Below are positions 1,284 through 14,635 of a stretch of DNA of 14,635 nucleotides, in pieces. The number at the start of each line of letters is the position of its first letter. Within the stretch, counting starts at the first letter, position 1. Made by a program: the position numbers and the translations under genes. Origin of the DNA: a virus (Duplodnaviria > Heunggongvirae > Uroviricota > Caudoviricetes); the IMG/VR virus record IMGVR_UViG_2693429762_000010, positions 1 to 14,635 of that record; one strand, given 5' to 3'. The notes under the pieces were generated by a model that was not told where the DNA came from, did not search any database, and saw nothing but the letters and a program-made list of their open reading frames with translations.

Positions 1284-1524
1284 CCAACCGCAGCACGTTC
1301 TTGCTTAAGACGTGCTGCGGCATAATCCCAATGATTACTCCCTGACAGGGTTCGTAGGCCACTCAATATCAGGTGCAGTTGATGTATCAACACGGTTCAG
1401 CAACACCCGATACTTTTTCCAGGCTTCCAGCAATGAGGTTTCTTCCTCCGTTGCAATTTCCAGATCTGCAGCATCCTGAAGCGGCGCAATATGCTCACTG
1501 GCTACCTGCATCAGGTTGTTTTTT
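1284..1524. repeat. direct repeat copy B (3' end of tfa plus downstream stem-loop)
   Basis: Partner of 236-475; the two copies bracket the methyltransferase gene. Confidence 0.7.
1288..1320. terminator. GC-rich stem-loop between convergent methyltransferase and tfa genes
   Basis: CCGCAGCACGTTCTT / AAGACGTGCTGCGG forms a ~14-bp stem with one bulge and a 4-nt loop, 8 nt after the methyltransferase stop and 15 nt after the tfa stop. No immediately adjacent U-tract on either strand, so terminator function is uncertain. Confidence 0.4.
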
Positions 1525-1919
1525 GTTTCTTCCGCCTCCCGGATCCGGAACATTTTTTCTGCTTCCGTATCCTTCACCCAGGCTGTGCCGTTCCACTTCT
1601 GAAACTCCCCTTCCGGCGATAACCAGGTAACATTTTCCGGTAACGGACCGAGTTCAGAAATAAATAACTCGTCCCCTGACGCTACGTCATAAACCGTTTT
1701 ACCCCGATGGTCTTCAACGAGATGCCACGATGCCTCATCACTGTTGAAAACAGCCACAAAGCCAGCAGGAATATCTGGTGGTGCAATATCGGTACTGTTT
1801 GCTGGCAGACCTGTATGAGGCGGAATATATGCGTCACCTTCACCAATAAATTCATTAGTTCCGGCCAGCAGATTATAAATTTTTATGGTCCGTGCTTGTT
1901 CACTCATTCTGAATGCCAT
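1335..1919 (-). CDS. tfa: tail fibre assembly protein Tfa (lambda Tfa / TfaE / TfaQ family)
   Basis: 194-aa ORF starting [39 protein letters not shown] and ending [11 protein letters not shown], closely matching remembered E. coli prophage Tfa proteins. Its ATG overlaps the stop of the upstream tail-fibre ORF (TAATG). Confidence 0.92.
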
Positions 1920-2850
1920 TATGCAAGCCTCACAATATAGTTAAATGCGATGTTTTTGACGGTGTTTTCCGCGTTACCAGCAGCGTTAACGGTGATGGTG
2001 TGTCCATGTGAACCAATCGCAACGGAGTGCGTATGCGCACCAATACCTACAGTATGTGCATGTGCGCCAGAACTTGCTGCAGTACCAGACAGCGAGTGGG
2101 TATGAGCACCTGCTGACTGTGTCTGAATACGTTGATAATACGATCTACGGGAAGAAGTCCCCGGGCTTACTTGATACTGTGAATCCTGGACATAAGTGAA
2201 CCCACCGCCATCATAAAATGCTAACGCAGAACCGCCGCCTCCTGGCCAACGAATACCATTACCATGAGTATGATCACCGGCAGACCCCGTAGCAAGGTCA
2301 TAGGCTGCCTTTACCGACTTTGGCGTTGCCGCCAGCATTTCAGATGTGCTGTTGGTCGCGTTGCTAAGCTGAACTATCCCTTTCTGTGCTGTCGTTGCAT
2401 CCTGTGCGGTGTATTTCCCGTTAGCCAGCTCATACGCGGCCTTAACGGCTTTTGGCGTTGCCGCCAGTGACTCGGAAGTGCTGTTAGTCGCACTGCTGAG
2501 CTGAACTATCCCCTTTTTCGTCGTGCTCGCATCCTCAAGCGCCACGGCGGATGCAATATCCTCTGCCCGTTTTGCCGCTGTCTCAGCGCGCGTTGCCGCG
2601 GATTCCGCCGTACTTTTGCTCTGAGCTGCCGCCGTCGCACTGCCAGCTGCCTCTGTCGCCTTCGTGGATGCCGTCGTGGCGCTGCCCTTCGCTGCTGACG
2701 CCTGTCTGGTCGCCTCATCTTTTGAAGCAGACGCAGATGATGCCGATGACGCCGCCGAACTGGCGGACGATGCGGCAGCCGTTTTTGAGGATTCTGCGCT
2801 GGTTTCCGACGCTTTCGCGTTCGTCTCGGATGTCTTCGCTGCGGAATCCC
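1919..2850 (-). pseudogene. stf: side tail fibre (Stf) C-terminal remnant, 5' part deleted
   Basis: Frame ends ...[31 protein letters not shown] with the His-rich HTHS repeats and duplicated KGIVQLS(S/N)ATNSTSE motif of lambda Stf. Homology ([12 protein letters not shown]...) runs upstream in-frame to a stop at 2879-2881 with no credible start; the natural N-terminal ~2/3 is missing. Confidence 0.75.
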
Positions 2851-2859
2851 GCTGCTGCC

Positions 2860-2937
2860 TGTGGCGGTGTGAGCCGGATCATTACCGGCAAAAATATGTA
2901 CTTCCGCACGCTGTTCAGTGATGGTTTTCGTCACCAT
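2860..2937 (-). pseudogene. D: head decoration protein D N-terminal fragment (D'), fused out of frame to stf'
   Basis: ATG at 2935-2937 opens [26 protein letters not shown], matching the lambda gpD N-terminus (…GNSDPAHTAT…) from memory. Homology stops after ~26 codons and the stf frame takes over near 2850-2860. Confidence 0.5.
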
Positions 2938-2973
2938 ATTGTTAAAACCTCGTATTGATGTTCAGCACTGACT

Positions 2974-4425
2974 TCATGGCATGGCCATGAGCATTTTCAC
3001 GTCCGCATCACCGTCTTCTGACGCCTGTGACACGCCCCCCTGGACCGCAGCCGGTGAATGGTTCGCCATGAAATGTTCAAACAGGGCGGTTGTGGATGCA
3101 GAGACCGGTTCTGCCTTACCTGATCCCGCAGCCAGCACAGCCCGGGCGCTCTCCACGGTCATTCCCGGGCAGGCAGCCAGCTGTTCAGCCTGCGCCTCAG
3201 CCCCTTTTGCCTCATCCAGGGCCATGATCTGATCACGGAGTGATGGTCCGGCATTCGCCTGCGGTGAAGCAGCCAGGATCGGGCGGGCTTTTTCCACCGT
3301 CATCTCCGGCATCGCCGCCAGCGTTACTGCCAGTTGTTCACGACCGTTCGCTTCTTCACACGCCATAATGCGATCGGCTTCACTCTGCGCGGATGCCACC
3401 GGCTGCTGCGGTGCCGCCGCGGCCAGAATCGCCCGGGCCTGTTCAACGCTCATGCCCTGTTGCCCTGCCAGCATCGTGGCAAGCTGTTCACGTCCTTTCG
3501 CTTCCTGGCATGTCAGGATCCCCATCACTCGCTGGTTCTCCTGCACGGCGGCTTCCGTTGCAGTTAATTGCGGCATAGTGCCTCCTCTGACATTACTGTT
3601 CAGCGCCGTGGCCATCACACTGATGGCATCCGACGCATTGATTAATTCATCCGCCAGCCCGGCCTCAATGCCGGACTGACCTTCAAAAACGGCGGCCTCT
3701 GTTCCCGTGACCGCATCCACAGACAACCCGGTATACATCGCCACTTTTTCGGCAAACATCCGGTGCGCCGCATCAATCCGCTGCTGCATATCCTGGCGAA
3801 CCTCTGCCGGCAACGCTTCAAACTGATTGCCATCCACCTTGTGCGCCCCGGCATAAATCAGCGTGATATCCACACCGGCCTGCGCCAGATGACCGGCATA
3901 GCTGACATGGCTCATCATCACGCCAATGGAGCCGATACGGGATGTCTGGGTAACCAGCCGTCGGGAGCAGGCCGACGCCAGCAGCATGGCTGCAGAACAG
4001 GCCGTGTCATTGCACAGTGCCCAGACCGGCTTCTGCTGACGGAGGCGGTAAATCATGTCAGCGCAGTCAAACGCGCCGGCGGCCTGCCCGCCCGGACTGT
4101 CAATGTCCAGCAGTATGCCCCGCACCTGGCTATCTGCCATTGCCTGCTGAAGACAGGCGACAATGCCGTCATAGCCAGTCATTCCGGAAAATGGCCGCAT
4201 CCCCCCCAGCCGGTGCACCAGCGTGCCGCTCACCGGCAGTACCGCAATACCGTTCACCACCCGGTAAACACGGGCCGGTCGTTTACCTCCGGCCATGTAC
4301 TCGTCCGTTTCAGCCAGCATTCCGGGAGCATCAAGCTGTACCTGCTGTTGTGGTACCGAAAGACTTGCTGCCCCCATCTCGCGCCCGAGCGCGCAAAAGA
4401 AAACCCGCGCATAGCAGGGCCGCAT
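2974..4425 (-). CDS. C: lambda gpC-like head maturation protease/scaffold (S49 ClpP-like), natural N-terminus deleted
   Basis: YARVFFCAL…NGIAVLPVSGTL…GILLDIDSPGG…AFDCADMIYR…PVWALCNDTACSAAMLLASACSRRLVTQTSRIGSIGVMM aligns with remembered lambda gpC, with a repeated C-terminal EEA(K/N)GREQLA motif. Homology begins at YARVFF; the first in-frame ATG (4423-4425) lies in out-of-frame portal-derived sequence, so expression is doubtful. Confidence 0.7.
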   Translation of the reverse strand: MRPCYARVFFCALGREMGAASLSVPQQQVQLDAPGMLAETDEYMAGGKRPARVYRVVNGIAVLPVSGTLVHRLGGMRPFSGMTGYDGIVACLQQAMADSQVRGILLDIDSPGGQAAGAFDCADMIYRLRQQKPVWALCNDTACSAAMLLASACSRRLVTQTSRIGSIGVMMSHVSYAGHLAQAGVDITLIYAGAHKVDGNQFEALPAEVRQDMQQRIDAAHRMFAEKVAMYTGLSVDAVTGTEAAVFEGQSGIEAGLADELINASDAISVMATALNSNVRGGTMPQLTATEAAVQENQRVMGILTCQEAKGREQLATMLAGQQGMSVEQARAILAAAAPQQPVASAQSEADRIMACEEANGREQLAVTLAAMPEMTVEKARPILAASPQANAGPSLRDQIMALDEAKGAEAQAEQLAACPGMTVESARAVLAAGSGKAEPVSASTTALFEHFMANHSPAAVQGGVSQASEDGDADVKMLMAMP

Positions 4426-4552
4426 CGGCACTCTGCGCCGGTGGCAACCACTCCGCCATTTGCCCGCCAAATCCTGCGCCGCCCCCGTTGTAGCTGAGAC
4501 TCTCACGAAGCGGAACGCCGTTCACATCAATCAGGACAGGCGTTCGTTTCAT
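4406..4552 (-). pseudogene. B: portal protein B N-terminal fragment (B'), ~49 codons
   Basis: MKRTPVLIDVNGVPLRESLSYNGGGAGFGGQMAEWLPPAQSADAALL matches the lambda gpB N-terminus (…GGGSGFGGQLRSWNPPSESVDAALL…). Sequence then switches to gpC homology in another frame; start overlaps the W stop in the usual ATGA arrangement. Confidence 0.6.
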
Positions 4553-4755
4553 AACCTCACTCCCAGCGGACGACGGCGACGTCGGGTTGTCCCCAGTACC
4601 GACTCCGCATCATTGATCGCCCGGTTAAGCTCATCCAGAGAAGCCGCCGTATATTCAATTCTGCGACCATCTTTCTGGACAGACACCACCCGTTTACCGG
4701 TTAATAAATCAAGGCGCGCCTGACGCAGCGCCTGTAGTTCAGCGACTGTAACCAT
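4549..4755 (-). CDS. W: head-tail joining protein W
   Basis: 68-aa [42 protein letters not shown]… aligns along its length with lambda gpW (…[23 protein letters not shown]…). Confidence 0.85.
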   Translation of the reverse strand: MVTVAELQALRQARLDLLTGKRVVSVQKDGRRIEYTAASLDELNRAINDAESVLGTTRRRRRPLGVRL

Positions 4756-6379
4756 TCACTCCTCCGGACAGCTTCGCTGCCAGTTCTTTAAGGGTTGGCC
4801 GGGTCGTCTCTTCTTCCCGGGATTTTGCCAGTACAGCCAGATCAAGCTGCCAGCGTTGCACGGACACACGTAATGCCGCGTAGGCATACACCAGGCAGTC
4901 CAGCGCTTCGTTACGCCGCTTTTTGTTATCCCACAGCAGACGCATCTTTCCTTTTTCCCACTTCTCCACAAGCTCTTCCGCGACCAGTTGCTGCGCCTCT
5001 GTCTGCGAAAAAATCTCCGGATCATCAGGAAAACGGATGGCATACGACGTGGCTTCATCCGCAGACGTGGGATCGGCTTTCATACGGGCATAGAGAATTT
5101 CTTTTGCGGTGTCCGTCCCCACTTCACACAGATACACGCCCCGCTGATTGCGGGTTTTCGGCATGGTGATCACCGGCTTGCCATAGACAGATGCGCCTTT
5201 TACCGGCAGCACCCGGAAAACACCGTGTTTTTTTGACCTCTGATAGACAATTTCACCATCGATCCCCCCGGTGTCCCAGCAGACACGGGAAATGGTCATT
5301 TCGGTTCCGTCTGCATGGCAGTATTTTTTGTTGATCGCCGCATCCACACGTAACAGCGTCTCTTCCTCATCGGGACGGCCCATAATGATGATTTTATCCA
5401 CCAGAAAAGCTTCCTCTCCCGGTGCCCATCCCCAGACATACATCTCAAAACGGTTTCGCTGCGAGTCAATGCCCGCCGTCAGATAAACCACCCGGGCTGG
5501 CACCGCCGCCGTGTAATGCACGACCTTATCCATCAGTACCTGGTGATCGAGTTTTTCGCCCACGGCCTCTTCCCAGGTCTCGCCCAGCGTGGTGTTCACA
5601 AAGGTTTTCAGGCCGTTGGGATCTTTCAGTGCATCCAGCCAGTCATAGACTATCTGTACCCAGGTGGTGAACGGACTGTACGCCGTCCAGATATGGAACG
5701 TGATGGAGCGCGGCGGCGGAATTTCATTATCCGCGGCGCTGAAAAACGTCAGACCGTCACGGGTCCACATCCCCGTGTTTTCACAGATCCACCGCCCGTT
5801 GCTCTGGTCAAGCTCAGACTGATGGATCACGCAGCCATGATGTTCACAGAGGTAGAAAACGCTTTCGGGGCTGTCCTTCTCCCATTTAAGGCCAAAAGGC
5901 GTGGATTCATCGCCAAATTTCAGATACTGCTCCTCCCCACAGTGTGGGCAGGGCACATAAAAACGCATGAAATGCGCCGACTCGTTGGCCGCTTTTTCGA
6001 TCTGGCAGGTGCCTTTGATTTTAGGCGTCGAGCCGCGAATGGATTTGGGCCATACAGAGCCCTCAATACGTTTATCCCCAAGCAGGGTTGGCGAACCCTC
6101 TTTTTCGACATCCGGTTCGAACGAGGAAAGTTCGTCATAGCAGACCACGTCCACGGATTTTTCACGGTAGTTTTTAGCGGCAGCCCCGCCCAGGCACCAG
6201 AAGCCCACGCCCGATGAAAAACGTTTCAGCGTGAGGGTATTATCACGATGTTTACGCCCAAACCACGGTGCAAGATCGAGTAAAACCGGCACATCCCTGA
6301 TCGTGGGTTCCACATGAGATTTCATAAAATCTTCAGCAGCAGAACCCCTGACTCTGCCAGGCGGTGATGGTCCTGACAT
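4739..6379 (-). CDS. A: terminase large subunit gpA homolog lacking the N-terminal ~90 residues (Nu1'-'A deletion fusion; probably non-functional)
   Basis: [17 protein letters not shown]…[18 protein letters not shown]…[16 protein letters not shown]…[10 protein letters not shown]…[12 protein letters not shown] closely matches lambda gpA from about residue 95 onward. The N-terminal region, including the Walker A segment remembered near residue 80, is absent. In-frame ATGs at 6379 and 6325. Confidence 0.85.
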
Positions 6380-6422
6380 CAACGCCAAAAATATCGGCCA
6401 GTTTTTTCTTATTGACGTTCAT
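6333..6422 (-). pseudogene. nu1: terminase small subunit Nu1 remnant (first ~26 codons only)
   Basis: ATG at 6420-6422 opens [26 protein letters not shown] (lambda Nu1: MEVNKKQLADIFGASIRTIQNWQEQG…), then runs into a stop after 3 more codons where gpA-homologous sequence begins. Confidence 0.6.
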
Positions 6423-6559
6423 ACACTCCCCCGGGAACCAGAAAGGATCTGAAAATGGCGTTTTCTAACAAAAACAGCCTTTGTCAGATCCTTTTATATT
6501 TTTAAAATTCTATTGATAATCAATCAGTTAAAAAGAAGAAGAACGGATCTGATTTTTCC

Positions 6560-6620
6560 CTAAAAATTTTCATAAATAGCGAAAACCCGCGAGGTCGCCG
6601 CCCCGTAACCGGTCGGATCG
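6560..6620 (-). other. cos site (cosN cohesive-end sequence with flanking cosQ/cosB regions)
   Basis: Minus strand reads GGGGCGGCGACCTCGCGGGTTTTCGCTATTTATGAAAATTTT, matching the lambda left end. The 12-nt cohesive-end sequence GGGCGGCGACCT lies at 6592-6603, about 170 bp upstream of the Nu1' start. Confidence 0.8.
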
Positions 6621-6639
6621 CCGGAAAGGACCCACGAAA

Positions 6640-6654
6640 TGATAATGATTATCA
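6640..6654. promoter_or_regulatory. perfect 7-1-7 inverted repeat TGATAATgATTATCA (Fur-box-like)
   Basis: Matches the TGATAATnATTATCA half-site model of the Fur box; about 37 bp from cosN and 155 bp upstream of the RHH-like ORF. Could be a coincidental AT-rich palindrome. Confidence 0.3.
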
Positions 6655-6809
6655 TCTATATAAGGTTTATCACAACATGTGTGTACGCCATCAAACCACG
6701 AGAAATAATCAATTATGACGCAGGTATCGTATTAATTGATCTGCGTCAAATTAACGTAAAAGCAACTTCAGATAATACAAATCAGCAACACTGAATATGG
6801 GGAAACATT

Positions 6810-6995
6810 ATGTCATCAAAGAACAGAACCCGCAGAACAACAACCCGCAACATCCGATTTCCAAACCAGATGATTGAACAAATTAACATCGCTCTTGATC
6901 TGAAAGGTTCAGGAAACTTTTCAGCGTGGGTTATTGAAGCCTGCAGAAGAAGGCTGTCAACAGAGAGTTCGGGTATGAATTACATAATTAAGTAA
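6810..6995 (+). CDS. small predicted ribbon-helix-helix DNA-binding protein
   Basis: 61-aa ORF with GGGGAA upstream. Pattern RNIRFPNQMIEQINIALDLKGSGNFSAWVIEACRRRL fits the beta-strand/helix/turn/helix layout of Arc/MetJ/CopG proteins. Equivalent small ORF remembered at the lambda right end. Confidence 0.55.
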   Translation: MSSKNRTRRTTTRNIRFPNQMIEQINIALDLKGSGNFSAWVIEACRRRLSTESSGMNYIIK

Positions 6996-7127
6996 CATGG
7001 TGTTCACAGAACACGCAGTTACCGGACACATCAGTTTTCCATTCGCTCCCCGGCAGTACAGGCTTCCCCTCTGACGGGATAGCCTGAAAAAATAACACAG
7101 AAAATTATTTGTTATAATTAATATAAC

Positions 7128-7268
7128 TTACTCAAAAAAAAGCGACGAGAAAATCAGCATCAACGAACAATAAGCGCCAATACGTGATAACAAATGGCAG
7201 CCATATTTATCTGCAGTATAAGCAATGGACAGGATAACCACACCAGAAACCGTCAGCATAAAATCCAT
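7128..7268 (-). CDS. hypothetical small hydrophobic protein (46 aa)
   Basis: ORF below the track's size cut-off found by manual translation: MDFMLTVSGVVILSIAYTADKYGCHLLSRIGAYCSLMLIFSSLFFE, with GGGGAAG 6 nt upstream. One or two predicted TM segments. Could be chance. Confidence 0.3.
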   Translation of the reverse strand: MDFMLTVSGVVILSIAYTADKYGCHLLSRIGAYCSLMLIFSSLFFE

Positions 7269-7618
7269 TTGAACTTCCCCGGACAAAATCGACTCATCTA
7301 AAGATTTACAGCTCTTTTTATTATCAATATGTTAAAAGTAAAATAAACAGATGTTCAATAACACGAATACAAAAACGTGCTGAAATTCAATGAATCCATT
7401 TCTGTGTCATCAATTAATAGTGATAAACATCCGGCTTCTTCCACCATCGCACCGGACAGGCGACTATGAGGGGACAACGCCGCGCTCCGTTAACGCGGTA
7501 AACCCCGGTGTGTATCGTTTTTGATTATCCCCGCACACTCGCGCAGAGGAGTCTCCCTGTCGGGCTGCGGTCTCTGTTAATGAGGGAATACAGCGACGAT
7601 ACGGCGCATCAACAAAAC

Positions 7619-9559: not shown

Positions 9560-10366
9560 TTATATACGCCCTTTCAGATAAGTCATCCCCGGCTGCATCC
9601 AGTCAACAGGTGCTTTCTTAAAGGGCGTATTATCAAAATCACGCAGAAGAGCCTCCAGCACAACTGCATCATTGTCAGCACCACTGGCCATCATTTCAAT
9701 CTCAGCTGCTACCTGCAGATATCCCATGCAACGACCAATGCGCTTCATCAGCCCCTGCTTTTTATTGTTCTTCAGGTAATCAATGGCAAATTCAATGAGC
9801 GCCTCACTATGCTGGTGCGATGGCGGTGTTAATTTCCCATTTTCTGAGATGGTTATTTTCCCGCCATCTCCGTATACAACAAAGGATGGCCGGTTACACT
9901 CCCATTCCTGATCTTTATCAGGTGCAGACGCAATAAAATAACGTTTATTTCCTTCCTCTCCGGCACTTTTAACCGTAATGGAGTACTCAGACTGCAGACA
10001 AGACGCCTCTTTTTCTGACCGCAGTGTTGACGGCGGCATCTTCAGAGAACCAGTAATTCTTCCCGGTAGCTTTCCTTTGTAGGTTATCAACACATCCTGC
10101 GCCTCTAAAATTATGGGGCGCTTTTCCGGCAACGGTTCGTTCCCTTCACATAACCCGGCAGCAACATCCATGAAAAACTGCTTCGCCTGCTTTTTCGCCT
10201 CAGCTTCGTAAAACTCCAGCGTGGCACCTTCAGTACGGTCAAGACTAATCGCCACATTTGGCAACAACAGTGACGGATACCCACCAATTTCCAGTACCAC
10301 AGTAACAGTAATCTTATCCGGGTAATTATTTATCCCTTTAACAACCAGTTCGTATTTTTTCTTCAT
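9560..10366 (-). CDS. hypothetical protein (268 aa) inserted between holin and endolysin
   Basis: Long ORF starting 4 nt after the holin stop, with GGGGAGAG SD inside the holin 3' end (translational coupling). Soluble, Lys/Glu-rich, no TM segments, no Walker or other catalytic motif recognised. Confidence 0.7.
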   Translation of the reverse strand: MKKKYELVVKGINNYPDKITVTVVLEIGGYPSLLLPNVAISLDRTEGATLEFYEAEAKKQAKQFFMDVAAGLCEGNEPLPEKRPIILEAQDVLITYKGKLPGRITGSLKMPPSTLRSEKEASCLQSEYSITVKSAGEEGNKRYFIASAPDKDQEWECNRPSFVVYGDGGKITISENGKLTPPSHQHSEALIEFAIDYLKNNKKQGLMKRIGRCMGYLQVAAEIEMMASGADNDAVVLEALLRDFDNTPFKKAPVDWMQPGMTYLKGRI

Positions 10367-10735: not shown

Positions 10736-12589
10736 TTATGATGATGCTGGTGCATTTATCTCCAGCACCAGACTTTCTATCTCAACGCCATACGCTGCAT
10801 TTTTGGTAATATCCGTCAGCGTCAGCGCATTCAGCCCCAGTGTCAGACTGTCTTTTATGACCTGGAATGCCGGGCCAGCCACTCCATTCAGTTTCGGAGT
10901 AACCGTGGCACTGCCGGCGGTGAACACCAGCTCCAGCGTCTGCCAGTCGTTACTGTAATTCCCGAACTCGCCCAACTTTGTGTTTCCTGCTTTCCTGTGA
11001 TGCATCAGATTCAGTTTGCCGTCTGTGGTCTGGGTGAAGAACGACATCAGGAACGGGTTACCAGTCCCGGTCATCGCCACGACGTCAGGTAACGCTACAT
11101 CGGTATACAGATAAATTCCCAGACCGAACTGGTTGTTGGTCAGTGCGCCTGACAGTCGAAACTTACAGCTCAGTCTGCCACCCCGTGTCAGCAGGGAGAC
11201 TGCGTCATCCACCGGGCGCGTCAGGGACCAGGCTTTATTGCTCTGCTTGGCGATCTTAAATACACCACCCGACAACTGAATTCCGCCGTCCTTAATGGTC
11301 CAGCCCTGCGCAGCAGCCTCTCCGGCTGTCGGCAGCAGGGAGATTGTGCGAACGGACGTATCTGCAGACGGACCCGATGGCGTGTCGCCGCCGGGCGAGG
11401 GTTTGATTTCCGGTGCCTTACCACTGATGAAGGCTGAGGTGCGCCCGGCTACGTTCAGAATAGCAGTTGCCATACGATCGGGAATAATGCCACGACGCGC
11501 CCATGAGCTGAAATGCGTCGGGCGATTTGATGATACCCAGTTTTTGTTCGTTCGGGATGCCGAACCGTAATAACCAGACCCGGCAATATCAGGATCTTCT
11601 GACGGGTTGTTTGTCGGTGTATTAACTCCGCTACCATCGGTCATAAAGGGAACAAAATAAATCTGCTGGGATTCTTTACCTTTATATGCACCATATACCA
11701 CTTCATATTGCGTACCGTGTTCTTGTTTCCACGCGTATGTCGTGTCGCCACAAATCCAGGGGACTGATGCCGGACTTCCACCGTGACACTGCGCTGCCAG
11801 CCCGGCAAGGTCAGCACGGAACTGCTGTACCATTGCAAGAAATGCTGCTGGCTGCTGGGCGTAACTGGCATTCGTCATATCGAATTCCCCCTGCATCCAG
11901 CATATCGCCAGCAAAACGTTTTTCGGGTTTTTCTGCAATGCTGCCTTCGTGCGGAAAAGCAGATCCTGATATAACGGCTTACCCACTCCCCAGCGAGCCG
12001 AATCCTGACTGGCCCCCGTGGACTCGCTGAATGTCCCCTCCGTGCCCTGGGTGAATGCCGAACCACCACGACAGCATGGTACCAGCAGGATCCCCGCATT
12101 ATTAGGGATATACGGAAGCAGTTTTTTGGCAATATGTAAGCCCTGGCCGACACAGCCGTACTGCCCTTTGCTCAGGTCAGCCCGGGGATGGTTAATCGTA
12201 CTCATATCCTGAACATCATGCAGACAATGGTCAGCAGGAATGATGTCGTTAAATACGCATACTTCACCACCGGGAGTCACTGTGTTACGACGGGCCAGTT
12301 GCTTAATGCGCGGATGGGGCGCATCGTATGAATCCGGAAGCGGAAGCCCTTCACCGTAAGCCATGGCATTGGACTGCCCGGCCAGTACGATGACGTAGTA
12401 CCACTCCGGCTCAGTTGCACCACTGACGACCACATCACCTTCTGCTGCAATCGCCTGCATCAGGGTATAAGGGGTTATGGCCACCGGACTACCAAACGGC
12501 TGCCAGCCCTCTTTCAGTTTATGTGTCAGCTTTTCCGCAAGATCTGACGGCGACGCCGCCCTGACAACATCATAGTGTTTAAATGCCAT
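10736..12589 (-). CDS. nanS: prophage sialate O-acetylesterase NanS-p (DUF1737 N-terminal domain plus SGNH/SASA esterase)
   Basis: 617-622 aa. Starts [22 protein letters not shown]…; esterase block [13 protein letters not shown] (GQSN nucleophile motif). Matches remembered NanS-p proteins found between stx/tRNAs and the lysis genes in EHEC prophages. Start placed at the second ATG (GGAAAG SD); the first ATG at 12604 lacks an SD. Confidence 0.88.
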
Positions 12590-12849
12590 GGTTCTTTCCA
12601 CCATCTGAAAAATGATTCTTTAAAATACCTGACATGTAATACAGAAAAAACACAAAACCATACCTTAATTAAAAACCTCATCATCAAGCAGATATGCATG
12701 GATAAACTACAAGACGAGATATAAACCACCCTGCATTTAAATAAACAATAAACAACATCAGAAAAATAATTCTGCTCTATGGTTTACAATCAAAAATATC
12801 ATTTATACTTTTCAGAACATCACCAGCAAGGCATAAACAAGGAAACTAA

Positions 12850-13185
12850 ATGAAGTGGATTGTGATTGATACAGTTATCCAGCCATCATGCGGAATATCT
12901 TTTTCAGTCATATGGAGTAAAATAAAATTAATAATCTGGTATCAATCGGATGCTTTCTTACCTCCTGAAAGTATATTTACACTGACTCACACAGGCATCA
13001 TGCTCAATAACAAAGTGCTGCCTGTAACCATTTACAACGTAGTACCATTCAATAAAACATTCTGGAATTTAATCAAAAACAGCCAGGAATGCCCTACAAA
13101 TACAGATAACGTATTGAATGAATGCTTTAATAACCGTTGCACTCTGCAAATATGTCCTTATGGGCTAAAACAACAAAGTCCATAA
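12850..13185 (+). CDS. hypothetical protein (111 aa), AT-rich cargo gene
   Basis: Uninterrupted ORF in AT-rich DNA with strong SD AAGGAAA 7 nt upstream. Hydrophobic N-terminus and a C-terminal four-Cys cluster (C-x9-C-x4-C-x4-C). 6 of 13 Ile codons are ATA. No family recognised. Confidence 0.55.
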
Positions 13186-13220
13186 GGAGTTTACTCACAT
13201 CTGACAAAATCAATATAAAC

Positions 13221-13240
13221 AGCCCCTCCGGAGAGGGGCT
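13221..13240. terminator. perfect 8-bp GC-rich stem-loop (AGCCCCTC-CGGA-GAGGGGCT)
   Basis: 35 nt after the 111-aa ORF stop. A U-rich tract follows on the minus strand only (GTTTATATTGATTTTG), so it is more plausibly a minus-strand terminator or an RNA-stabilising hairpin. Confidence 0.3.
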
Positions 13241-13632
13241 GGAGAGTGGCGCTATGTGCCATTGCATGGTGCCGGGTGCCTCCCGGTGAATTCAGTACCA
13301 GCACCTGAATCCGCGATTATCCCATATACCTACTCGCTGATTGCCCCTCCGCACAGGGGGATTCACCATGCCAGTTTCTTTTAACAAACTCCCCGCAAAC
13401 CAGACAACAGTCAACCGCCTGAATTGTGAAGTATTTAAAAATTTCTCCCGCTAACTGATACCCGGCTAACAGTCTGGCGTTTTCTTTTTCAGCAACGGGA
13501 AAGCAGCAACCACCACACCCGCCACCAGCACACCGTCAGCCAGCACTGACATTATCCGGCTGCTGCAATGCCATTCACAAAAACAGTAAGCAATCACTTT
13601 TTACCGTAACCGGTGATAATCCAGATATGTAT

Positions 13633-13989
13633 CTACCCCAGATGAGTAATCCGAAGTTCATCCATACCACAGGTCCTGGCTATTCTGTTGTACTCCTGAA
13701 CAAGAGCAAATAATTCTGAATTAGCCACCATGAACTCATCGCAAACCCTCTGTATAGCATCACTATTCAGAATAATAACGTCTCTTCCCGAAAGACGATC
13801 AGGAGTACAGAACAAAACTGTCAAACGGCTGAAGGCCTTTGCTCGTTCTGCATTGACTATATCAATACGCTGCCTAAGGATGAAACACCCCGACGCCTCA
13901 TCAATATTCACTCTACCCACACCATATGAATGATAAATATTTAATGCTGAAAAAACCATTAGACCGTATAACAAACACTCAATCAACAC
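13633..13989 (-). CDS. hypothetical protein (118 aa), AT-rich cargo gene
   Basis: Stop-free 357-nt frame in AT-rich DNA. GTG start without a clear SD; alternative in-frame ATG at codon 11. Rich in AGA/AGG/ATA codons. No family recognised. Confidence 0.4.
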   Translation of the reverse strand: MLIECLLYGLMVFSALNIYHSYGVGRVNIDEASGCFILRQRIDIVNAERAKAFSRLTVLFCTPDRLSGRDVIILNSDAIQRVCDEFMVANSELFALVQEYNRIARTCGMDELRITHLG

Positions 13990-14096
13990 TTAACAGAACT
14001 TTTATTTTTGACAAACATATAATATTTTCAACAATATCCTGAGCCAGGTATATTTCAGTATAAGGCTCTGCCGAAAGGAATCTGGAAGAATGAATA

Positions 14097-14173
14097 TGGC
14101 GCGCTGTACTGGATTCGAACCAGTGACCGATTGCTTAGAAGGCAATTGCTCTGTCCGGCTGAGCTAACAACGC
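14097..14173 (-). tRNA. tRNA-Arg (anticodon UCU)
   Basis: Minus strand GCGTTGTTAGCTCAGCCGGACAGAGCAATTGCCTTCTAAGCAATCGGTCACTGGTTCGAATCCAGTACAGCGCGCCA: 7-bp acceptor stem, D-arm, anticodon loop CUUCUAA, T-loop GGTTCGAATCC, encoded CCA. Resembles argU-type and Stx-phage arg tRNAs. Confidence 0.9.
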
Positions 14174-14273
14174 TGAATACCGATAATGGACCGCCATCGG
14201 GGACCCGCCCCCGCACCAACAACCCTGTTATCGTGTCGTCTGCTCTTCCTGATAAGCTAATGGCGGTTTGTGA

Positions 14274-14349
14274 TGGTGGCCCTTGCTGGATTTGAACCAG
14301 CGACCTGGCGATTATGAGTCGCTCGCTCTCACCACTGAGCTAAAGGGCC
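14274..14349 (-). tRNA. tRNA-Ile2 (anticodon CAU, ileX/ileZ-like, reads AUA after lysidine modification)
   Basis: Minus strand GGCCCTTTAGCTCAGTGGTGAGAGCGAGCGACTCATAATCGCCAGGTCGCTGGTTCAAATCCAGCAAGGGCCACCA: full cloverleaf, anticodon CAU. Much closer to remembered E. coli ileX than to elongator tRNA-Met. Confidence 0.88.
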
Positions 14350-14398
14350 GGAAGCAGAATAATAATGGTGCGTAATTAATTCTGCAATCTCATCCGTT

Positions 14399-14635
14399 TC
14401 AAACGATTAAATCCTGAACTTCCCTGACTGTCTGCTCAAAACGTCCGGTCTCCAGTTCAACGCCAATCGCACGACGCCCGAGCGCCAGTGCAGCTTTTAC
14501 CGTTGAACCTGAGCCCATAAAAAAATCTGCAACCAGGTCATCATCTGCATAGTACGTCAGCGCCGGCCACTGGTTCAGGGCGTATGCGAACGCTTTCGCC
14601 AGTTCTGAGTGTCGCGACAGGGTTTTCATCTTTTC
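14399..14635 (-). CDS. DNA methyltransferase (N6-adenine/N4-cytosine, beta-class), C-terminal part; gene runs off the window end
   Basis: C-terminal 76+ aa with FxGxG SAM-binding motif (DFFMGSGST) placed near the C-terminus as in beta-class DNA MTases. Frame stays open to the window edge. Position upstream of the tRNAs matches remembered Stx-phage layout. Confidence 0.75.
   Translation of the reverse strand, partial: EKMKTLSRHSELAKAFAYALNQWPALTYYADDDLVADFFMGSGSTVKAALALGRRAIGVELETGRFEQTVREVQDLIV

Follow-up and report, generated by a model that had tools for sequence, protein, structure and literature searches.

The iraL locus of a CFT073 potB-type prophage: rare codons beside phage tRNA genes as a probable outcome of low G+C content

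The ileZ-argN-argO tRNA cluster upstream of stx in 933W-type phages was reportedly described by Plunkett and colleagues in 1999. Its position upstream of stx in Stx phages is credited to Schmidt et al. 1997 in the passage of PMC3636060 that cites that work, and the idea that phage tRNAs compensate for codon usage is cited in both PMC3636060 and PMC4631060. Lambdoid phages with two or three tRNA genes, however, are no different in codon adaptation from those without (P = 0.93; PMC4631060), and in SfI, Sf6, ST64T, and phage 21 the position downstream of Q is occupied by tRNA genes of other specificities (PMC3636060). The second closely related system comes from uropathogenic E. coli CFT073, whose potB prophage contains an iraL locus (Hryckowian et al. 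2014, mBio, PMC4045071). The CFT073 IraL protein, which is identical to the one discussed here, was shown experimentally to bind RssB and to stabilize sigma-S; iraL has its own promoter with a mapped transcription start site, and a plasmid with only the region from -100 through the iraL coding region raises sigma-S in K-12 (PMC4045071). K-12 is without these phage tRNAs. It carries iraM (ycgW) beside the cryptic prophage e14, a gene of the same family and similar length with a GC content of 0.34 and ATA at 8 of 18 Ile codons, which differs from iraL in having no phage tRNA genes nearby and in its genomic context and regulation (PMC4045071).

The window analyzed here is the whole 14,635-nucleotide stretch of IMG/VR record IMGVR_UViG_2693429762_000010. 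The gene block at 12850 to 14349 is already known from strain CFT073, as positions 12600 to 14388 are collinear with its potB iraL locus (97.2% over 1.79 kb). Both loci have ORF118 and a DUF3927 gene, and the IraL protein and the tRNA-Ile gene are identical. They differ in the tRNA genes, of which CFT073 has three (CAU, UCG, and UCU, 7 to 13 nt apart) where argN has decayed in the window, and in the upstream neighbor, which is IS200 in CFT073 and a methyltransferase gene in the window. The prophage in the window is also far more degraded. It is clearly defective, with no portal gene, a truncated terminase (the ATPase domain of TerL is missing its start), and tail-fibre genes that abut an S49 protease gene; no long ORF lies between 6388 and 7600. 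The whole window has no full match among complete E. coli genomes, the best coverage being 79%.

The left boundary of the block is a gene for a SASA/DUF1737 carbohydrate esterase (10736 to 12604, minus strand; Pfam DUF1737, SASA, and DUF6645), labeled "SASA family carbohydrate esterase" by PGAP in near-identical records; downstream of the cargo slot, no late gene comes before it. Next comes the 111-aa ORF at 12850 to 13185, on the plus strand, opposite to the late operon, with a GC content of 0.35. Its product scores 162 bits against NCBIfam NF007393 (cutoff, 121), which places it in the IraM/IraL family of RssB anti-adaptors. The protein is 100% identical to CFT073 WP_000871291.1 and 59% identical to K-12 IraM; the window and CFT073 genes differ by 2 synonymous nucleotides, and 137 of the 140 nt upstream are identical to CFT073. 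Judged by this identity, the ORF is IraL, the RssB anti-adaptor published for CFT073 (PMC4045071). On the minus strand follow an STnc100-family prophage small RNA (sRNA) gene (13211 to 13400; Rfam RF02076, 132.4 bits against a gathering score of 47), a gene for a 43-aa DUF3927/TciB-like protein (13466 to 13597; Pfam PF13064, 92.7 bits; PHROG 1470, "TciB-like"; PGAP annotated), and the 118-aa ORF118 (13633 to 13989; PHROG 2873, phrog_2873, E = 1.7e-70). STnc100 is described as prophage encoded in bioRxiv 10.64898/2026.05.13.724894. Its gene ends in a G+C-rich hairpin (13220 to 13241) followed by a T run, a terminator-like site 35 nt beyond the iraL stop codon that could act as a terminator of both strands.

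Upstream of the tRNA genes, on the late strand, lies the 3' end of a phage DNA methyltransferase gene (14399 to 14635, minus strand; Pfam N6_N4_Mtase). The minus-strand order runs from the methyltransferase gene through tRNA(CAU), the argN remnant, and tRNA(UCU) to the esterase and holin genes. In two related prophage records the order is Q, a small ORF, the methyltransferase gene, and the tRNA genes, and Q stands further upstream in related prophages, beyond the edge of the window. The tRNA genes thus have the late-strand position, between Q/methylase and the lysis cassette, of a lambdoid late-region tRNA cluster. A promoter and terminator scan found 6 promoter-like sites where 4.4 were expected. 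A TTGCAG-17-TATTAT sequence directly upstream of the tRNA-Ile gene, below the threshold of the scan, is a candidate promoter element, which is speculation.

ARAGORN and Rfam confirmed the two tRNA genes of the initial annotation, one with a tct anticodon at 14097 to 14173 (argO type, 68 bits in Rfam) and one with a cat anticodon at 14274 to 14349 (ileX-like, ileZ type, 72.5 bits), both on the minus strand. The CAU tRNA is labeled "Met" by ARAGORN and tRNA-Ile by PGAP in identical records. Its sequence equals that of the CFT073 prophage copy (100% identity) and matches K-12 ileX at 68 of 76 positions; among the 8 differences are a compensated change in the stem, from C6-G67 to U6-A67, and a 27-43 pair that is A.C and not G.U. 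The anticodon loop, CUCAUAA, is that of K-12 ileX, and the pairs C4-G69 and C5-G68 are kept. The determinants of TilS, said to go back to work by Ikeuchi and colleagues in 2005, reportedly are C34-A35-U36 with an ileX-type anticodon loop, C4-G69, and C5-G68. Alignment to K-12 ileX finds every one of these in the CAU tRNA. The ileX likeness, the loop, the acceptor pairs, and the PGAP label make it reasonable to read this tRNA as an AUA-decoding Ile2 tRNA that is presumably lysidine modified. The claim that the two tRNAs decode AUA and AGA therefore holds for the anticodons, and its AUA part presumes lysidine. The other tRNA shares its anticodon loop with K-12 argU and aligns with the CFT073 prophage tRNA(UCU); as a tRNA-Arg(UCU), it would read AGA and, by wobble, AGG. 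Between the two genes, at 14174 to 14273 (minus strand), lies the remnant of a tRNA-Arg(UCG) gene, whose two ends align to the intact CFT073 argN and whose middle is scrambled; neither a tRNA match at E <= 1 nor an ARAGORN call was obtained for it. With argN of the ileZ-argN-argO cluster gone, the window is a two-tRNA derivative of the cluster. Of the forms in the loci sampled, the one with two tRNAs and a decayed argN is the most frequent, which suggests that argN is dispensable and that the Ile and Arg(UCU) tRNA genes are being kept.

In megablast comparisons, this region is 84 to 93% identical to Stx-phage tRNA regions annotated as ileZ/argN/argO or as tRNA-Arg (twice) and tRNA-Met. The two arrangements share the position after Q/methylase and before cargo and the esterase gene, the same strand logic, and the same rare-codon rationale. 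They differ in that the window is without stx, having ORF118, DUF3927, and STnc100 in its place, and in that it has apparently only two functional tRNAs. The initial annotation saw here the arrangement proposed for stx expression, serving different cargo. The slot is indeed that of stx and no stx is present, but dedicated service to the cargo, as proposed for stx, gained no specific support. The words "different cargo" also hold only in part: Stx2a phages have an IraM-family gene, with a product 70% identical to IraL, at this position, beside stx2AB and between stx2B and the esterase gene.

The rare-codon counts of the initial annotation are exact. ATA makes up 6 of 13 Ile codons in iraL, and AGA/AGG (AGR) 6 of 11 Arg codons in ORF118 (three AGA and three AGG), which also has three ATA among its 11 Ile codons; counted from the GTG at 13911 (92 aa), the ORF118 values are 5 of 10 for AGR and 3 of 9 for ATA. 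The only Arg codon of iraL is a CGT, with no AGA or AGG, so the Arg tRNA is irrelevant to IraL. In 80 K-12 genes (29,053 codons) sampled as the host reference, ATA is 8.1% of Ile codons and AGR 6.1% of Arg codons, both below the cargo shares, and the late genes of the window (ATA, 10/96; AGR, 21/133) are also lower than the cargo (Fisher P = 0.004 for ATA and 0.006 for AGR). The objection that these frequencies might be no higher than in the late genes or the host is answered by this count. In the pooled cargo, AGG, AGA, and ATA are enriched above all other rare codons, at 20, 11, and 9 times the host core-gene share, a numerically striking match, and ATA and AGR together reach 54 per 1,000 codons in iraL and 76 in ORF118 against about 8 in the host. 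The observation of a codon match is confirmed; its functional interpretation, that the tRNAs serve the cargo, is weakly supported, having found no specific support in the comparisons below.

The base composition of the genes accounts for much the same shares. ATA takes a share of 0.46 in iraL where 0.41 is expected from the gene's own composition (P = 0.47), and AGR a share of 0.55 in ORF118 where 0.46 is expected (P = 0.39), that is, no excess of cognate codons beyond composition in either gene, on counts (13 Ile and 11 Arg codons) small enough that a modest real excess could be missed. The positive control, stx2A, is well above composition (ATA, 15/20; 0.34 expected; P = 0.0002), unlike the cargo in the window. 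The AT-rich rfb (O-antigen) genes of K-12, with no tRNA nearby, have ATA at 60 of 217 Ile codons and AGR at 44 of 83 Arg codons and cannot be distinguished from the cargo (P = 0.20 and 1.0, respectively); AGA, AGG, and ATA are their top enriched rare codons as well, in the same ranking. Within the IraM family, K-12 iraM (8/18), the Stx2a-phage copy (7/15), and the window copy (6/13) all have about 45% ATA, whatever the number of linked tRNAs (two, three, or none), and the ATA codons that all three share at positions 16, 21, and 101 go back to shared descent. In the intact CFT073 prophage, the combined frequency of ATA and AGR per 1,000 codons is highest in the lysis genes (43), followed by the morons (30), the early genes (27), and the structural genes (12), with none in the major capsid gene; iraL is among 11 of 51 genes at >=45 per 1,000 and contributes 6 of about 215 such codons. 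As expected of codon-compensating phage tRNAs, the cognate codons are thus commoner in this related prophage (12 to 43 per 1,000) than in the host (about 8), but they are spread over the whole prophage and not focused on the cargo. The richness of iraL and ORF118 in ATA, AGA, and AGG is therefore probably an ordinary consequence of a low G+C content combined with weak selection on codons; such codons are typical of any AT-rich E. coli gene, which, with the block being known from CFT073, makes the finding ordinary.

The distribution of the genes was surveyed in 5,426 complete E. coli genomes. The tRNA pair occurs at 7,597 places in 3,061 genomes, iraL at 1,604 places in 1,446, ORF118 at 1,346 places in 1,185, and the whole block in 863. 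About 80% of the tRNA modules adjoin other cargo, and by these numbers the tRNAs do not co-occur specifically with iraL or ORF118. Among 74 IMG/VR loci with an identical IraL, 32 have the Ile and Arg(UCU) tRNAs, 22 all three, 9 Ile and Arg(UCG), 6 none, and 1 Asn and Gly. The linkage of tRNA-Ile2 to 66 of the 74 mostly reflects shared descent, as the loci are close relatives. The chromosome of strain 1579 matches the block only in iraL: the gene, with an identical product, immediately follows Q, and no tRNA gene accompanies it.

We consider it likely that the block at 12850 to 14349 belongs to a lambdoid prophage of the CFT073-potB type and is its iraL locus, made up of a standard late-region tRNA module and AT-rich morons, with no dedicated service to the cargo. 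The locus would sit in the "moron" slot, flanked by the Q/methylase region and the lysis cassette, where Stx phages have stx. Its two tRNA genes would be what remains of an ileZ-argN-argO cluster after decay of argN, the cluster being part of the backbone of the late-strand transcription unit and traveling, as a module, with many different cargoes, and the neighbors would be AT-rich accessory genes, iraL on the opposite strand with its own promoter and ORF118. We infer that the tRNAs are expressed; this would supply more tRNA-Ile2 and tRNA-Arg(UCU), two of the scarcest E. coli isoacceptors, and may modestly and non-specifically aid the translation of all phage genes rich in rare codons. That the tRNAs are instead kept beside the cargo because its translation needs them, a co-adaptation as proposed for stx, seems to us distinctly unlikely. 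The cargo is rich in exactly the codons that the tRNAs read, ORF118 lies immediately downstream of them on the same strand and contains the cluster AGA-ATA-GCC-AGG, and, in view of the ATA excess of stx2A in the homologous slot, it is in principle not implausible that tRNA-dependent codons are under selection at this locus. Yet the codons of iraL and ORF118 do not exceed composition, AT-rich genes without tRNAs look the same, and most of the tRNA modules stand beside other cargo. IraL, divergently transcribed from its own promoter and without an AGR codon, works in K-12 without the phage tRNAs, and identical iraL genes occur with no tRNA or with other tRNAs. Finally, a divergent ORF118 homologue has AGR at only 2 of 9 Arg codons and ATA at 1 of 7 Ile codons, and its locus, with tRNA(CAU) and tRNA(UCG), has no tRNA(UCU).

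The defects of the prophage and the loss of one of its three tRNA genes would also fit functionless hitchhikers, leftovers of the late-operon module in a decaying prophage that have not yet eroded. We regard this as unlikely, if somewhat less so than co-adaptation: both tRNAs score like genuine tRNAs, the stem change of the Ile tRNA relative to ileX is compensated and its gene is identical to the CFT073 copy, and the argN-decayed form is the one most often sampled. Two intact tRNAs in a defective prophage could even hint at a benefit to the host. Some phage tRNAs act in counter-defense, and colicin D acts on tRNA-Arg, so the pair might be spares that replace host tRNAs cut by anticodon nucleases. 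This is the most improbable of the readings, since both tRNAs have the anticodon loops of their host counterparts ileX and argU, without the changes by which loops elsewhere gain resistance to nucleases, and no defense-system model matched the neighboring proteins. A long shot, about on a par with co-adaptation, is that the prophage tRNA-Ile2 acts as a dosage gate on IraL, in which 46% of the Ile codons are ATA, with ORF118 similarly gated by tRNA-Arg(UCU) through its AGA-ATA-GCC-AGG cluster. The leuX tRNA, which controls virulence genes in uropathogenic E. coli, offers a parallel. If the gate existed, IraL output, and with it log-phase sigma-S and the stress resistance of uropathogenic strains, would depend on the presence and expression of a prophage tRNA. 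The general stress response of these strains would then be set by that tRNA, a neat case of lysogenic conversion under tRNA control. For now, the comparison is of mostly negative value: rare codons beside phage tRNAs are the default look of an AT-rich moron in this slot, and a composition-controlled test separates a real signal (ATA in stx2A) from a generic one (iraL and ORF118).

ORF118 itself, located directly downstream of the tRNA genes on their strand, has a GC content of 0.41 and a conserved core of 92 aa from the GTG at 13911. PGAP annotates it in none of the sampled records, and no match in Pfam, NCBIfam, or PADLOC points to a function. Its AlphaFold2 model, a two-helix hairpin with a pLDDT of 69, has no Foldseek match below E = 0.07 in BFVD and no informative fold match. 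Homologues, forming two clades about 57 to 60% identical, came from E. coli and Shigella alone, and the ORF is intact in CFT073. Three control frames have a dN/dS of about 1 and the frame of ORF118 has 0.28, but a low value (0.24) is also seen antisense, in the frame with the same third positions. ORF118 is apparently a real, widespread small gene. Separately, argN decay is recurrent within the tRNA cluster. Both are minor by-products of the analysis that may be useful.

The 111-aa ORF at 12850-13185 (+) encodes an IraM-family protein (162 bits with NCBIfam model NF007393, whose cutoff is 121). It is identical to WP_000871291.1 of the potB prophage in uropathogenic Escherichia coli CFT073, with 2 synonymous nucleotide differences in the gene, and shares 59% identity with K-12 IraM. 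Both figures agree with the published description of IraL, which acts as an anti-adaptor on RssB and stabilizes sigma-S in log phase (PMC4045071). Positions 12600-14388 have a collinear counterpart in CFT073 with 97.2% identity, and 137 of the 140 nucleotides 5' of iraL are the same. The block is the iraL locus, already sequenced and partly characterized, of a lambdoid prophage of the CFT073 type.

The gene order is Q, a small ORF, a DNA methyltransferase gene, tRNAs, ORF118, DUF3927, STnc100, iraL, esterase, holin, and lysis genes, all on the same strand except iraL, which is antisense. In lambdoid late operons, this Q-to-lysis interval serves as the cargo slot. In an Stx2a phage (LC567837), the slot reads methylase, three tRNAs, stx2A, stx2B, an antisense IraM-family gene, and esterase; in the window, ORF118, DUF3927, and STnc100 occupy the place of stx2AB. 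The IraM-family gene of that phage (2012-2335, +; product 70% identical to IraL; ATA at 7 of 15 Ile codons) lies antisense between stx2B and the esterase gene, in the position that iraL has in the window, and an IraM-family gene therefore belongs to the Stx phage layout too. The DUF3927/TciB-like gene between ORF118 and iraL encodes 43 aa. The STnc100-family prophage sRNA is at 13211-13400 (-) (Rfam, 132 bits), and its terminator hairpin (13220-13241), 35 nt beyond the iraL stop codon, may terminate transcription on both strands.

Family searches with ORF118 (118 aa, 13633-13989, -) returned PHROG 2873 as the sole match. Homologs were found only in E. coli and Shigella. They form two clades, about 57 to 60% identical, whose common core begins with V/M-N/D-IDE, corresponding to a GTG at 13911 in the window. 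Comparison with a divergent homolog gave a dN/dS of 0.28, with 43 third-position changes versus 25 and 22 at the others, while three other frames used as controls gave about 1. The antisense frame sharing third positions with ORF118 gave 0.24, as expected, and is open for just 67 codons. Because of this purifying selection, the controls, and the shortness of the antisense frame, we take ORF118 to be a real gene, likely a small one missed by annotation. No sampled record has a PGAP annotation at this place. A count over 5,426 complete genomes of E. coli placed the ORF in 1,185. AlphaFold models the product as a hairpin of two helices (pLDDT 69), for which a fold search gave no informative match. 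In a locus of the divergent clade (GCA_045757245.1 contig, 2762-4360), an IS3-family element directly upstream supplies a different N terminus; this locus also has AraC-type and TolA-like cargo and carries tRNA(CAU) and tRNA(UCG) but no tRNA(UCU).

ARAGORN placed a tRNA-Arg(UCU) gene at 14097-14173 (-) and a tRNA gene with anticodon CAU at 14274-14349 (-), scoring 68 and 72.5 bits with the Rfam tRNA model. The latter is identical to K-12 ileX at 68 of 76 positions, with the same anticodon loop, C4-G69 and C5-G68 kept, and a compensated stem change (C6-G67 to U6-A67); pair 27-43 is A27.C43 in the phage and G27.U43 in the host. As PGAP also labels the identical gene tRNA-Ile, we take it to be of the ileX/ileZ type, presumably reading AUA after lysidine modification. 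The 100 bp between the two genes (14174-14273, -) are a remnant of argN, the gene for tRNA-Arg(UCG): its two ends can be aligned to the intact CFT073 gene, the middle is scrambled, and a tRNA model search found no match there even at an E value of ≤1. The window holds the ileZ-argN-argO module in a form reduced to two tRNAs. A promoter-like TTGCAG-17 nt-TATTAT element (14359-14387, -) ends 9 nt ahead of the tRNA-Ile 5' end and is kept in CFT073, where the upstream gene is IS200, not the methyltransferase; scoring under the scan threshold, it gives only a hint of tRNA transcription independent of the late promoter.

The initial annotation had claimed that the phage tRNAs match rare codons enriched in the adjacent cargo, in an arrangement serving that cargo. 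Its counts were exact: ATA makes up 6 of 13 Ile codons in iraL, whose one Arg codon is CGT, and ORF118 has 3 AGA and 3 AGG among 11 Arg codons (AGA plus AGG, AGR) and 3 ATA among 11 Ile codons. These shares exceed those of the window's late genes (ATA 10/96, P=0.004; AGR 21/133, P=0.006) and of a reference of 80 K-12 genes (8.1% of Ile and 6.1% of Arg codons). The codon match thus stood against the comparison proposed to refute it. Its interpretation gained partial support, with composition and loose linkage making service dedicated to the cargo improbable. With the ATA share expected for a gene calculated from its third-position composition and the AGR share from its base composition, neither gene showed an excess (iraL ATA, expected 0.41, P=0.47; ORF118 AGR, 0.46, P=0.39, and ATA, 0.25, P=0.55). 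The positive control stx2A did (ATA 15/20, expected 0.34, P=0.0002), and the test is therefore able to reveal a genuine excess. Seven AT-rich K-12 O-antigen (rfb) genes with no tRNA gene nearby had ATA at 60 of 217 and AGR at 44 of 83, not distinguishable from the cargo (P=0.20 and 1.0). The most enriched rare codons of the pooled cargo, AGG (20-fold), AGA (11-fold), and ATA (9-fold), are enriched 9.6-, 18-, and 6.6-fold in the rfb genes, where the same three rank highest, and CTA, CGA, GGA, and TTA are enriched 2- to 4-fold in both. Since the rfb genes show the same enrichment, the codon match is a generic mark of E. coli accessory genes that are rich in A+T.

Of the 5,426 genomes, 3,061 carry the tRNA pair, at 7,597 places in all; iraL has 1,604 places and ORF118 has 1,346, and 863 genomes contain the whole block. 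At least about four-fifths of the modules therefore accompany other cargo, which includes stx2, TerB-family genes, and O157 hypothetical genes. In IMG/VR, 74 loci encode identical IraL and have sufficient flanking sequence; at these, the two-tRNA form, Ile plus Arg(UCU), is the commonest (32), followed by all three tRNAs (22) and Ile plus Arg(UCG) (9); the rest have Ile only (2), Arg(UCU) only (1), a duplicated set (1), Asn plus Gly (1), or none (6). The Asn(GUU) and Gly(UCC) genes lie downstream, replacing Ile and Arg. At 16 loci, the three tRNAs are just 250 to 450 bp from iraL, and the ORF118/DUF3927/STnc100 segment would therefore not fit there. Strain 1579 has identical iraL immediately after Q without a tRNA, and its chromosome has no other match to the iraL block. 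In the IraM family, two linked tRNAs go with an ATA share of 6/13, three with 7/15, and none (K-12 iraM) with 8/18.

We consider it probable that a backbone tRNA module adjoins AT-rich morons, whose rare codons would follow from base composition, and that translational help, if any, would be general, not dedicated to iraL and ORF118. Dedicated coadaptation of tRNAs and cargo, which the codon match would suit, is improbable given the composition test and the loose linkage. In the intact CFT073 relative, ATA plus AGR per 1,000 codons number 27 in early, 43 in lysis, 30 in moron, and 12 in structural genes; the major capsid gene has 0, and the host about 8. iraL, at 54, is among 11 of 51 genes at 45 or more and holds 6 of about 215 such codons; any benefit would be distributed over the whole prophage.

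The reading that IraL, and through it sigma-S, is gated by the dosage of tRNA-Ile2 would draw on the ATA codons of iraL, and we give it little credence. Published work mapped a transcription start site belonging to iraL itself, and a plasmid with just -100 through the coding region was enough to raise sigma-S in K-12, where these phage tRNAs are absent (PMC4045071). Codon adaptation of lambdoid phages with 2 to 3 tRNA genes did not differ from that of lambdoid phages without (P=0.93) (PMC4631060). In the window, argN has decayed beside two genes still recognized by tRNA models; that these two are inert leftovers is unlikely, if somewhat less so than gating or coadaptation. Phages SfI, Sf6, ST64T, and 21 carry tRNAs of other specificities (Asn, Thr) downstream of Q (PMC3636060). 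A role of the window tRNAs as anti-nuclease spares seems highly improbable.

The window prophage is defective at 2845-7600. The S49 protease gene (2974-4506), adjoined on its other side by tail-fiber and assembly genes, is followed directly by gpW (4549-4755), and the prophage has no portal gene. The TerL ORF (4739-6388) is without the first ~66 positions of the ATPase domain, and no long ORF lies between 6388 and 7600. An IS009 RNA was matched at 1378-1576 (-) (Rfam, 224 bits). In the 268-aa ORF at 9560-10366 (-), the DUF1327/YdfR domain spans just the first 100 residues. Relatives annotated as YdfR family have a total length of about 115 aa, and this ORF may be a fusion or read-through.
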